From the sequence record PP627280.1: a stretch of 58,460 nucleotides of DNA, one strand, 5' to 3'. The position numbers and the translations under genes were made by a program. Positions 36,673-52,277 of the stretch are shown one piece after another. The DNA comes from Escherichia phage SHIN8. The notes under the pieces are model-generated. The model was not told the DNA's origin, searched no databases, and saw nothing but the letters and a program-made list of their open reading frames with translations. The first letter of the stretch is position 1; every line of letters begins with the position of its first letter.

Positions 36673-37560
36673 TTACTGCTGCCACGGCGGGACTGCTGCT
36701 TGTGCCGGATGCGGTTCAGCTTGCTGCTGCGGCTGAGCTTGCTGCTGAGGTGCTGCTGCTTGGCCAGGCTGTGCTACCTGCTGCGCCCACGGCTGCTGAG
36801 CTGCTTCCGGTGCTACTGGCTGTTGTACCGGAGCTTGCTGCACTGGCTGCTGTGGTGCTGCGTTTTGAGCAGGATTATCCCACGGCTGCGGTGCGGCATT
36901 CTGCCACGGTTGTGCTGCTGCGCCCTGCTGTGGTGCTGGTTGCTGCTGCACAGGCTGCTGAACTGGCTGCTGTTGCTGCACCGGAGCTTGCTGCTGTACA
37001 GGCGCTTGCTGTTGCTGAGCAAACGGGTTAGCTGCTGGTTGCTGTGGTGCTGCGCCCGGGAAAGCTGGCTGCTGTGCTGGCGCACCTGCACCGAACGGGT
37101 TAGCTACTGCCGCTTGAGCACCCATTGCTGGAGCACCTGCTTCTTTTTCCGCATACTTAACCGGATCGTTAATGTTAGCATAACCGTTAGGCTCGTTGCT
37201 GTCTTCATAACCTTCCTGAGAACGAACTTTCAGACGCAGGTTCAGCGGAATGTTATGCAGTTGAGCAGGAGTATCCCAGCGAATTACGCCAACCGCATGG
37301 GAAAGCGCGCCCAGTTGTTCGTATGCGATACGCACAGTATCTTCGTTGTCGTTGATAACGTTGTAACGAGCAAAGATTTTACGACCTTTGGCAAAACCAT
37401 CAATGATGCTAAACGTTACCTGGATCGCCATACCGCCATTTTTGGTCGGTTTAAATTCAGATGCTTCAATTACTGCTTTATACCAACCTTTCGGCAATGC
37501 GCCGTAAGAAGGTGCTTGATAGCTGCTCGCGTCAAAGTGGAAATTAGTTGGCATAGTCAT
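36673..37560 (-). CDS. ssDNA-binding-like protein with Gln/Pro/Ala-rich C-terminal tail
   Basis: 295 aa; globular N-domain ~140 aa then low-complexity QQQAPVQQ repeats; next to Sak4-like ATPase. Confidence 0.4.
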   Translation of the reverse strand: MTMPTNFHFDASSYQAPSYGALPKGWYKAVIEASEFKPTKNGGMAIQVTFSIIDGFAKGRKIFARYNVINDNEDTVRIAYEQLGALSHAVGVIRWDTPAQLHNIPLNLRLKVRSQEGYEDSNEPNGYANINDPVKYAEKEAGAPAMGAQAAVANPFGAGAPAQQPAFPGAAPQQPAANPFAQQQQAPVQQQAPVQQQQPVQQPVQQQPAPQQGAAAQPWQNAAPQPWDNPAQNAAPQQPVQQAPVQQPVAPEAAQQPWAQQVAQPGQAAAPQQQAQPQQQAEPHPAQAAVPPWQQ

Positions 37561-48733: not shown

Positions 48734-49401
48734 AAATCCTCCTAGTGAACTGGTAATGCTACTATAAAACAGCTATTAGCTATTTGCAAGAATTGTTTTA
48801 ATATAGTGCTTAGTGGCGTACATAGTGGGCAAAGCGTGTATAGTACGCCGTTACTGGCTTTGTAAAAGTTTGCCACTATAAACCACTATCCCACTATTCA
48901 CTAATTTTTTATTTTTACACAGAGCAAAGTTTATAAGTTTACGGTTTCCCCCTTATTACCCCGTTTTCAAACAAAGAATTAGTAGTAGTAGTGAAAACGT
49001 GTAAATGCCACTATCACTACTATACTATTAATTATCTGAAAAAAGTTGGGAGTATACCCCTATAAACTTATAAACTTTCAGTCAACTAACTAAAATAAAA
49101 CTAATTAAACTAATATTAATAATAACTATAAATATATATAAAATAAGGATTTATTATTATTGTATATAGTACCTATTGGTATTATGTGATGAGTTTATAG
49201 TCACTAAATAAACTCTATAAATTTTAATAAACCTGAACGGATGCAAATCAAAAACGAGAAGTCAAGTGCTTTTGAGGGAAATTTATTGAACTATTGTGAT
49301 CGGAAGGTATATCAAGCTATAATGCGCTTAATCGCGGGATATTGGAGGAGGACTTTATTGCGCGGTTAACCGGACCAGTAGGAGGGCTGGCCCGGAGTAG
49401 T
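48734..49401. repeat. AT-rich 668-bp non-coding region with repeated CTATAAA/CCACTAT motifs
   Basis: CTATAAA at ~48763, 48877, 49050, 49127, 49216 and inverted at 49194; CCACTAT x3 at 48872-48897; (TAG)4 at 48981-48992. Confidence 0.6.
48761..48789 (-). promoter_or_regulatory. candidate sigma70-type promoter (TTGCAA-17-TATAGT)
   Basis: hexamers on minus strand, -10 about 28 nt upstream of the 48733 ATG. Confidence 0.35.
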
Positions 49402-50708: not shown

Positions 50709-51046
50709 GATGCAACCCTTTTTATGTGGTTAAGCAGTATTTCTTTGTTGAAGTAATAATAGCCTTGCATCGTGATATTGAATAGGCCAAAAGTGCTATT
50801 TTAGATCACTATTACATCTACAGCTTTGCAGTAACGCTACGCTAAAAATGCAAAGTCTTACGTTTGCAAAGAAAGTGGATTTTATGTACATCACTCTTAG
50901 TACGTATAACGTCTATTATGTTAAATAGCTAAGTTATTGATTTATGGTAAATCTTGTATCAATTCGGACGTTATAGGAGTCTAACGTATTGATTTATAAG
51001 GGTGTAAAATTTTGCTGTTTGTAGCGCATAAAAAGGAACAAACCGG

Positions 51047-51063
51047 GATGTCATAAAATGACA
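51047..51063. promoter_or_regulatory. candidate operator palindrome ATGTCAT-aaa-ATGACAT in divergent control region
   Basis: perfect 7-bp inverted repeat next to TATAAA-like elements between divergent gene blocks. Confidence 0.3.
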
Positions 51064-51168
51064 TGTGTTTTGTCAGTATAAATGCCACGTTTGGCCTAGA
51101 CATGGATCAAGTCATGTTGTACTATATAGTCAAAGGAAAGATAAAGCTGAAAGGCGGAGGAAAATAAA

Positions 51169-51318
51169 ATGAGAAAGTTTAAAGTCATGTACTACGGTAA
51201 CTACATTGGAGACGTTAAAGCTCCGAACCGTGCTGAGGCAGAAGGTTTCGTCCGCGCAGAGATGCAACTTGGAATCGCTGATTTTGCAGCCATTATCGAA
51301 CTAGTAGAGGTATTTTAA
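51169..51318 (+). CDS. small hypothetical protein (49 aa), not in ORF track
   Basis: ATG with GGAGGA RBS, first gene of the rightward block. Confidence 0.35.
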   Translation: MRKFKVMYYGNYIGDVKAPNRAEAEGFVRAEMQLGIADFAAIIELVEVF

Positions 51319-51319
51319 T

Positions 51320-51460
51320 ATGCCACGCAAATACACGCTTACACGCGCACAGCACGCGTTATTAATTGCAGCAATGCGCGCAGAATATGCAGTTCATGGC
51401 TGGCATAGTGCCATGATGCGCGGTAAAAGCATATATGCGGACATACTCTCGCAAGGATAA
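51320..51460 (+). CDS. small hypothetical protein (46 aa), not in ORF track
   Basis: ATG 2 nt after upstream stop. Confidence 0.3.
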   Translation: MPRKYTLTRAQHALLIAAMRAEYAVHGWHSAMMRGKSIYADILSQG

Positions 51461-52025
51461 CGCACACAGCAGCACCACAGCGAGCTAATGTACATAGGTA
51501 ATGGTAATGCATTACCAACACACAACGAGCACGCTGTACCCCACAAAGCGGCGCTAATTTCAACACTCACAGGCTGTACGTTAACTCGTACGGCCTGCTC
51601 TGCTATATGCACGCCACATACGCAGCCAGCTCACAGTGAACATTAATATAATCACGAATGAAATGGATTCGTTTGGAAGAATAACAATTCTTGCAGTCAC
51701 AGACCGGTCCAATGAGCCGGCTCATAGACCCCACCTAGGATCATCAGGGTACTAATAATCACCCGAGGGCGCCTTATCCATCCTGATAGTAAGTCCACGC
51801 CTAAATCTCACCTGTCACATCCCTGTCCACCTACATCCATGACCCCACCTACCTTCTTTTTGAATATATTGCGCTCATCCTTTCTAAATATATGGATTTT
51901 GGTAGTAAATTCTGAGTCGTCAACGTATAATTCGTCTTGTAGCTGCTCCATAGCTATCATCTTTAAGCGGATGCAACCAATTTCTATCAGTTCACACCTG
52001 TTTTTAGAGCATCGAGGAGGTATTT

Positions 52026-52277
52026 ATGTGCGACTCCAGTGCAAGCGCTGCACCCAGCACCTCCAGCAATGTGGTTACAGAGGTAAATGCAATGCGATTA
52101 GGCCCATATCGCGGCTATTATGGTCGTGCAGCATGGAATGACGCTACTCAACGTTTTGAAGGCTGGATTATCTGTCCGGAACGTGTTAAATTTCACTCCG
52201 TAAAAGAGAAAAATATCGTTCTTAATTTTCAAAAATGTGTCACTAAATATGTAGAGGAGCAGGAAGAATGCGTGTAG
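52026..52277 (+). CDS. hypothetical protein
   Basis: 83 aa; AGGAGG RBS. Confidence 0.4.
   Translation: MCDSSASAAPSTSSNVVTEVNAMRLGPYRGYYGRAAWNDATQRFEGWIICPERVKFHSVKEKNIVLNFQKCVTKYVEEQEECV

Follow-up and report, generated by a model that had tools for sequence, protein, structure and literature searches.

In phage lambda, the first small early gene is followed by the cro-nutR-tR1-cII region, in which a short conserved motif, a hairpin and a C-rich, unstructured, untranslated RNA precede the next genes. A similar arrangement was found in Escherichia phage SHIN8 (PP627280.1). The SHIN8 DNA was read as one strand of 58,460 nucleotides, and this whole stretch is called the window here. The element under study is a gap of 565 bp (51461-52025, about 1% of the genome) between the second of two early micro-genes and the gene at 52026-52277. 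The gap codes for no conserved protein. Judging from its sequence, it may be an untranslated cis-regulatory spacer, with a terminator or attenuator and a re-initiation promoter between the early micro-genes and the next operon. We give this reading an even chance.

The gap differs from the lambda region in several ways. No boxA (CGCTCTTA, at most 1 mismatch) was found in 51461-52025. The first hairpin of the gap, H1, is about 61 nt long compared with 15 nt for boxB, and there is no hairpin with a GNRA-like pentaloop. The gap fails as a lambda nut site because it has neither a boxA nor a boxB-like hairpin. In addition, no N-like protein was identified in this phage, a promoter-like core follows, and Rho dependence is only predicted here.

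Early/middle terminator-promoter junctions of lytic coliphages are annotated in SA126VB and SA80RD. These junctions have a strong hairpin and then a conserved TATAAT within about 50 nt, as do the hairpin H2 and the promoter-like site P1 of the gap. Like the gap, they have a second promoter-like site upstream of the next operon, and a textbook terminator is present at the syntenic site of PSTCR7. Unlike canonical terminator junctions, H1 and H2 of the gap both lack a U-tract.

The promoter-early stem-loop (PeSL) cassettes of T4-type phages were reportedly proposed by Arbiol and colleagues in 2010 to mediate the modular shuffling of small early genes. As in the gap, a conserved stem-loop or promoter forms the fixed border of hypervariable tiny early genes, and recombinants break inside it. 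PeSL elements are repeated many times per genome, whereas the gap element is single-copy. The antisense RNAs OOP of lambda and sar of P22 resemble the gap in its possible leftward promoter, whose transcript would converge on the upstream early genes. Unlike OOP and sar, this transcript has no predictable terminator or size, and its promoter is not consistently strong in relatives and is absent from phages with an endonuclease cassette.

Coding capacity of the gap

The window is a complete genome of the genus Seuratvirus (Queuovirinae) with relatives at 90-98% identity. Its closest matches are the E. coli siphophages Seurat and CAjan, the SLUR phages and Bas21-24 of the BASEL collection. The gap was compared in about 35 relatives, comprising 15 GenBank loci, further GenBank hits, and metagenome and IMG/VR contigs. 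Collection scans yielded few diverged relatives, and one 15-mer scan was non-specific. In every relative examined, the gap at this place was unannotated or inconsistently annotated.

The GenBank annotations conflict in strand and frame across records. A plus-strand open reading frame (ORF) is called in the Seurat (gp70) and CAjan records, a minus-strand ORF of 42-50 aa is called as a hypothetical protein in ECP2304, OddieOddie and CSP1C, and some records call none. In the window, the minus-strand ORF has 50 aa (51808-51960) and was judged not to be a conserved gene. Searches with tblastn, PHROGs, Pfam and 5.8 billion proteins placed it in no family: there was no PHROG match and no significant Pfam match, and the protein search returned only 3 near-identical clusters. 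Its frame is broken by indels in CAjan (-1 at 51897), in metagenome contig L155 (+2) and in Salmonella phage STP-SP5, where 22 aa are left, and Hafnia phage yong3 has no counterpart. Substitutions within the ORF are few and mostly non-synonymous, and no convincing ribosome-binding site precedes it. The plus-strand ORFs of Seurat (gp70) and CAjan were also rejected. Their translation is of low complexity, they occur in particular haplotypes only, and relatives of the window type have lost their ATG.

A hidden small protein gene on either strand is therefore very improbable. The calls in several records speak for such a gene, as do residues 1-33 of the minus-strand ORF, which are protein-like and, among the 28 records with a hit, are conserved at 82-100% identity in 27. 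The broken frames, the substitution pattern, the missing family and the contradictory annotations described above argue against it. The preliminary description had seen no convincing ORF in this region, and this was borne out, since no ORF of the gap survived the comparison with relatives. A conserved protein was looked for at the homologous place in these genomes and was not found; the gap is conserved without coding signal.

Modules of the gap

The non-coding status of the gap, its modular conservation, hairpins, composition and promoter-like hexamers were observed directly. Its features are as follows (z, fold relative to shuffles; PWM, position weight matrix score).

51458-51540: module A, an invariant motif at the upstream stop codon and hairpin H1
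51458-51476, plus: invariant linear motif (A)TAACGCACACAGC, containing the stop codon of micro-gene 2
51477-51537, plus: hairpin H1, about 61 nt, -23.3 kcal/mol, z = -3.3
About 51520-51760: module B, haplotype-specific, at least three versions
51570-51597, plus: hairpin H2, 11-bp G+C-rich stem (CAGGCUGUACG / CGUACGGCCUG) with a 6-nt loop, -21.9 kcal/mol, z = -4.6
51623-51652, plus: promoter-like site P1, CAGCCA (TAGCCA in relatives), 18-nt spacer and TATAAT (51647-51652)
51654-51725, plus: run of small hairpins and palindromes, fold z = -2.3
51654-51672, plus: ACGAAU-N7-AUUCGU
Within 51674-51695, plus: AAGAAU-AACA-AUUCUU
51702-51709: palindrome GACCGGTC
About 51700-51890, plus: module C1, a C-rich, G-poor, rut-like tract, predicted to be unstructured
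51817-51851, plus: tandem units ACATCCCTGTCC(ACCTA) / ACATCCATGACC(CCACCTA)
51853-51985, both strands: module C2, a near-invariant core of about 130 nt
51903-51931, plus: rightward sigma-70-like site, TAGTAA (51903-51908), 17-nt spacer and TATAAT (51926-51931), PWM 10.0
51923-51896, minus: leftward sigma-70-like site, TTGACG (51923 to 51918), 16-nt spacer and CAAAAT (51901 to 51896), PWM 10.9
51986-52025, plus: variable proximal leader with the Shine-Dalgarno sequence GAGGAGG (52014-52020), belonging to gene 52026-52277

The motif TAACGCACACAGC of module A was present in all relatives despite a differing upstream gene. It forms the left edge of conservation and a mosaic junction. In the upper stem of H1, GGUAAUG (51497-51503) pairs with CAUUACC (51510-51516). 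H1 includes a 16-bp palindrome and the conserved motif GTAATGGTAAT, whose exact sequence occurs once in the genome. Most relatives ('Seurat type') have another 3' flank and form a different long hairpin round the common core GAGCUAAUG...GUAAUGGUAAU...CAUUAGCUC; in this type, 98% of the cells are paired across 12 variants. The loop contains GUAAUGGUAAU and measures 6 nt (window type) or about 15 nt (Seurat type), with stems of 7-20 bp. In STP-SP5, two stem pairs of H1 are changed on both sides (a single lineage), and several G-C pairs have become G-U. In yong3, the sequence at the H1 site has diverged and forms small, weak stem-loops (z = -1.5). The H1-equivalent site of Providencia phage PSTCR7, which belongs to another genus, is occupied by a canonical bidirectional intrinsic terminator, followed by a non-coding spacer of about 600 nt. 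The recombinants L154 and L159 join flanks of both H1 types, and therefore exchange occurs inside the H1 core. A 13-mer of module A (GCAGCACCACAGC, 51469-51481) recurs 4 times on the opposite strand at 36744-37053, inside an SSB-like gene (36673-37560). This recurrence is probably a coding repeat and a coincidence.

The window-type module B comprises H2, the TATAAT of P1, two small hairpins and two palindromes. The 5' half of the gap folds far better than shuffles, with z = -4.6 on the plus strand and -4.0 on the minus strand. The record of SA126VB annotates H2 as a terminator and P1 as a promoter. H2 is absent from Seurat-type haplotypes, and P1 is restricted to the window-type haplotype. In Dru_SM1 (locus L005, 1610-1637), the 28-nt H2 is inverted in place compared with all other phages, with a reverse-strand match of 100%. 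The PWM score of P1 is modest (6.9), and across 5 relatives ATATAAT is invariant between varying flanks. The first and last small hairpins have invariant stems and variable loops in relatives, while the AAGAAT/ATTCTT stem and the perfect 14-bp palindrome are degraded. None of the 76 pairs in the window-type block was compensatory. Variation was depleted in stems with p = 4e-6 under the alignment-derived structure and with p = 0.01-0.8 under single-sequence folds. This depletion was rejected as evidence of structure, as it is largely circular and mostly lost with an alignment-free structure.

The C-rich tract contains a 100-nt segment, starting at about 51757-51760, with 41 C and 12 G, a C-minus-G excess that is unsurpassed on the plus strand of this genome. 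The other strongly C-rich segments of this strand all lie within the leftward-transcribed block. The C/G ratio of the tract is 2.2, compared with 0.76-0.84 in sense-strand coding sequence, and a ratio of 1.6-1.7 is retained in the gaps of the Seurat type, STP-SP5 and L144 despite non-homologous sequence. The 3' half of the gap (51775-52030) is predicted to be unstructured (z = +0.8 on the plus strand and +0.3 on the minus strand). The tract has the marks of a rut site, namely at least about 80 nt of C-rich, G-poor RNA, little predicted structure and no conserved ORF. Its CCCCACCTA direct repeats lie about 114 bp apart, with a tandem pair in addition, and GACCCCACCTA is found at 51727-51737 and 51841-51851. 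Repeats of the CCCCACCTA type do not recur elsewhere in the genome. Long-range anti-Shine-Dalgarno pairing of 51850-51858 with 52014-52022 appeared in the minimum-energy fold and was rejected, as it shows no covariation and is absent in STP-SP5.

The gap of PSTCR7 was also inspected (locus L164, 730-1372). It is an unannotated stretch of about 640 nt after the first rightward early gene, with the terminator AAGCCCGC…GCGGGUUUUAUUUU at its start. Dozens of AAUAACA-type (A-A-N) repeats come next, and the stretch has very little G. At its end are two copies of CACCCCACTA, about 111 bp apart, and TAGTAAATTC, which are motifs common to the window.

In 20 relatives the core shows hardly any variation. 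Some of these have just 81-84% identity over the surrounding region, and in them the core is better conserved than its coding flanks. Blocks of the core can be aligned at about 70% identity in STP-SP5 and yong3. Its two promoter-like sites overlap and lie about 95 nt upstream of gene 52026-52277. The sigma-70 matrix was a simple one, built from consensus frequencies; it ranks both sites among the top ~1-2 x 10^-4 of all positions in the genome, with scores on a par with that of the main early promoter (51097). At the homologous places, STP-SP5 has a rightward site (TAGAAA-17-TATACT, 10.9) and yong3 has a leftward site (GTGACG-16-TAAAAT, 10.7). The leftward site coincides with the most conserved block, GGATTTT..AAATTCTGA.TCGTCA. 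Neither site is kept at strength in both STP-SP5 and yong3, and the core promoter may therefore face either way. The diversity (pi) of the leader is 0.07-0.12 versus 0.01-0.04 for the core.

The motifs listed in the preliminary description are all present, displaced by 2-6 bases. The first palindrome, GGTAATGCATTACC (51503-51516), is the core of the 16-bp perfect palindrome TGGTAATGCATTACCA (51502-51517). The second, GAGCCGGCTC (51714-51723), belongs to the 14-bp palindrome ATGAGCCGGCTCAT (51712-51725). The genome has 4 perfect palindromes of at least 14 bp, compared with 3.8 expected from shuffles, and 2 of these, including the longest, fall inside the gap. ATGAGCCGGCTCAT is perfect in the window phage only. 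Because the relatives read GCCGAC or GCCAAC and are thus all imperfect, the palindrome as such is not under constraint. CCACCTA occurs at 51731, 51827 and 51845, which are three of its four plus-strand copies in the window. TATAAT occurs at 51647 and 51926, and two copies in 565 bp are weakly unusual given 24 on the plus strand genome-wide. A unit of about 40 nt (GTCACA..GTCCA..GACCCCACCTA) is duplicated about 115 bp apart, with an alignment score that was reached by 4 of 1000 shuffles. A CACAG cluster (5 copies in 240 bp, the densest in the genome) was rejected as a motif, as its sites are lost in the closest relative.

The combination of motifs had been taken to suggest a structured RNA or clustered protein-binding sites. 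The structured RNA held in part: H1 is a conserved stem-loop and the 5' half is predicted to fold strongly on the plus strand. A single discrete structured RNA did not emerge, as the 3' half is predicted to lack structure on either strand, no covariation was seen within the window-type haplotype, and one of the palindromes is not conserved. A covariance-model scan (Rfam 15, permissive threshold) matched no family in the gap; its only two hits were at chance level (E = 4-5) and lay outside the gap. ARAGORN found no tRNA or tmRNA gene.

The proposed transcription boundary and its alternatives

In the best-supported reading, the spacer parts an exchangeable immediate-early micro-gene cassette (51169-51460) from a conserved rightward operon that starts at 52026. 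The cassette would be transcribed rightward out of the divergent control region (50709-51168). Transcripts from the early promoter may end, be attenuated or be processed at H1, by the stop codon, and H2 would add to termination in the window haplotype. Read-through RNA would be long, untranslated, unstructured, C-rich and G-poor, and could allow Rho loading. Rho is a host termination factor that loads on untranslated, unstructured, C-rich and G-poor RNA. The downstream operon would be re-initiated at the near-invariant promoter-like core about 95 nt before its start codon, and P1 may be a second promoter-like site in the window haplotype. The overlapping leftward site of the core, if active, would give a transcript converging on the early genes. 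We infer termination, Rho dependence, promoter activity and timing from these features. The gap is probably an element of an ordinary kind, namely a boundary made up of hairpins that resemble terminators, a tract of the Rho type and a promoter, and this element is undocumented for the genus Seuratvirus. A composite transcription-control region fits the evidence better than a small RNA gene.

Several points weigh against this boundary. Scans for consensus promoters and terminators were at chance level overall. The tail of H1 (ACCCCACAAAG) has no U-tract (at least 5 U in 8 nt), the tail of H2 (CUCUGCUAUAU) is not a proper one, and the terminator scan reported neither hairpin. Canonical intrinsic termination is thus not predicted, because H1 and H2 lack U-tracts. 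The rightward -35 hexamer of the core is weak (3/6), yong3 lacks the rightward TATAAT, and STP-SP5 has only a weak leftward site (5.4). The C-richness of the plus strand is equally a G-richness of the minus strand, which is the normal sense-strand composition of this phage, and for this reason the C/G bias could instead mark a leftward transcript. Low diversity runs on into the downstream gene, so part of the conservation among close relatives is recent shared ancestry. Five viable relatives lack the core, and therefore the core is replaceable. No transcript maps for the genus or for this region were found in the literature.

A regulatory non-coding RNA is another reading, which we consider unlikely. 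Such an RNA might run leftward from TTGACG-16-CAAAAT (start ~51889), across the G-rich complement of the C-rich tract and on into the micro-genes, with antisense action or convergent interference like that of lambda OOP, or it might be a rightward small RNA that starts at P1 (~51659) and ends in the C-rich tract. The leftward or antisense form is a serious alternative. Its site is the better match in both the window (10.9) and yong3 (10.7), with the same 16-nt spacer, and it falls on the block that is conserved best. In the gap, composition is sense-like on the minus strand (G > C), the minus strand of the 5' half is predicted to fold well (z = -4.0), and the conservation is without coding capacity. 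The weak site in STP-SP5, the absence of an evident terminator for a leftward RNA, and the lack of an Rfam match and of covariation argue against such an RNA. Moreover, phages with the endonuclease cassette lack the promoter and retain everything upstream (H1, module B and the part of the C-rich tract that ends at 51836), and most relatives have no P1 for a rightward RNA to start from. A functionless origin of most of the gap, as a mosaic junction with recombination linkers, cassette scars and a decayed minus-strand gene, and with low diversity due to recent ancestry, is improbable. The locus is indeed an exchange hot spot, with at least 3 versions of module B, recombinant H1 flanks in L154 and L159, endonuclease cassettes, a 370-bp cassette in SD04 and a 31-bp insertion of the slur01 type. 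The diversity of the neighbouring gene is equally low among close relatives, and the composition resembles that of a minus-strand gene. Against decay stand the blocks of about 70% identity in STP-SP5 and yong3, beside which the downstream gene is 76% identical as DNA in STP-SP5 and 72% identical as protein in yong3. In relatives with an overall identity of 81-84%, the core is also better conserved than the coding sequence on either side, and the hairpin and the C/G bias outlast the replacement of the sequence.

The repeats and palindromes may also be read as binding sites on the DNA itself, such as operators of a phage regulator, iterons of a replication origin or another DNA-transaction site, and we hold this to be improbable as well. 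The CCCCACCTA-type repeats about 114 bp apart and the tandem pair lie beside an AT-rich stretch (51855-51915), and the same motif pair recurs about 111 bp apart in PSTCR7. Perfect palindromes are clustered in the gap, and the predicted P1 start falls at ACGAAT-N7-ATTCGT, whose arms are invariant and whose centre varies. The flip of H2 in Dru_SM1 keeps the DNA palindrome and worsens the RNA stem. By contrast, the arms of H1 change together, which indicates structure and not sequence-specific recognition, several palindromes are not conserved, and the repeats do not recur elsewhere as the sites of a regulon would. The adjacent 46-aa protein has no recognised DNA-binding fold, and a far more origin-like region lies elsewhere (48734-49401). 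The most novel of the readings is that H1 and the C-rich tract form a previously undescribed switch of processive antitermination or attenuation. A phage or host factor that binds the hairpin would then let RNA polymerase past a Rho-dependent terminator or keep it from the next operon. The function would resemble that of lambda nut or HK022 put, to which the switch would be unrelated in sequence. This switch is improbable too, and what suggests it is the genus-conserved H1 at the last immediate-early stop codon, with GUAAUGGUAAU in or at its loop. A convergent leftward RNA that starts in the invariant core might act together with the switch.

A replication origin in the gap is unlikely, as there is a better candidate at 48.7-49.4 kb. 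That region, at 48734-49401, is a 670-bp gap between two minus-strand genes, with a GC content of about 21% at 49000-49300. It has CCACTAT-type repeats (~48871-48905 and 49008-49030), a AGTAGTAGTAGTG run and a very AT-rich part (49060-49240). Measured on the transcribed strand, which there is the minus strand, the next-strongest C excess is that of the 100-nt segment at 49336. The whole region resembles an origin of replication, a cluster of promoters or both. No iteron-binding initiator was recognised in the phage, and its primase is an NrS-1-like primase-polymerase.

Exchange at the locus and genome setting

In five relatives, Skure, Dru_SM1, WildeMaa, SA80RD and phiG7 (loci L005, L006, L011, L012 and L013 taken together), the segment 51837-52067 is swapped for an HNH homing-endonuclease cassette of about 560-590 bp. 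The removed segment comprises the core and the first ~14 codons of the downstream gene, which in these phages is shortened at its 5' end to a GTG-started ORF of 186 nt. The junction of the cassette lies directly after CCCCACCTACC. This swap looks like intron-less homing with co-conversion. In Aeromonas phage SD04, a cassette of about 370 bp is inserted just upstream of the core, which still adjoins the downstream gene. The insertion (~1820-2170 of locus L009) is equivalent in place to 51855-51887 of the window. It starts with the leader sequence of the endonuclease cassette (…GTTTCACGCTTTCTATATACTGGGTTTAGTGTTAAAATAT…) and contains a small ORF, MSLIGLASAFVLG…, that is membrane-peptide-like and unannotated in the record. 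The slur01-type phages have a 31-bp insertion in the gap. A search of 5,426 E. coli genomes gave no match to the gap sequence, and the phage itself has no further copy; a host origin or a mobile element as the source of the gap was rejected on these grounds.

The genome surrounding the gap is organized as follows.

1 to about 20.6 kb, plus: structural genes
20.8-50.7 kb, minus: replication and nucleotide-metabolism genes
50709-51168: AT-rich divergent control region
51169 to the genome end, plus: small genes
51169-51318, plus: micro-gene 1, 49 aa
51320-51460, plus: micro-gene 2, 46 aa
52026-52277, plus: downstream gene, 83 aa

The minus-strand block encodes the NrS-1-like primase-polymerase, a helicase, a DNA polymerase, a ligase, a Sak4-like annealing protein and an exonuclease. 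The 46-aa protein of micro-gene 2 belongs to PHROG 37795. Its N-terminus (MPRKYTLTRAQHALL…) is kept in nearly all relatives, also in those in which the remainder of the cassette differs. Its AlphaFold model is one long helix and is uninformative; a sequence search found no relative in the PDB, and no DNA-binding fold was recognised. For the 83-aa downstream protein, a weak HicB-like match was obtained (PHROG 9151, E = 0.005). It is named 'Hfq' in one record, which is probably unreliable.

Seuratviruses (Queuovirinae) serve as model phages; examples are the members of the BASEL collection and studies of 7-deazaguanine DNA modification. We know of no description of how their transcription programme is organized. 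As things stand, the gap would belong to an ordinary class of element. The exchange of small early genes, endonuclease cassettes and other inserts can be placed at this locus, which is useful for phage engineering. If the proposed reading is true, the ORFs called here in several GenBank records would be spurious, which would be useful to annotators. If the hairpin and the C-rich tract form an antitermination switch, they would be a new example outside the lambdoid phages. If the gap is a transcription boundary as proposed, this spacer would mark the border between the immediate-early and delayed-early genes.

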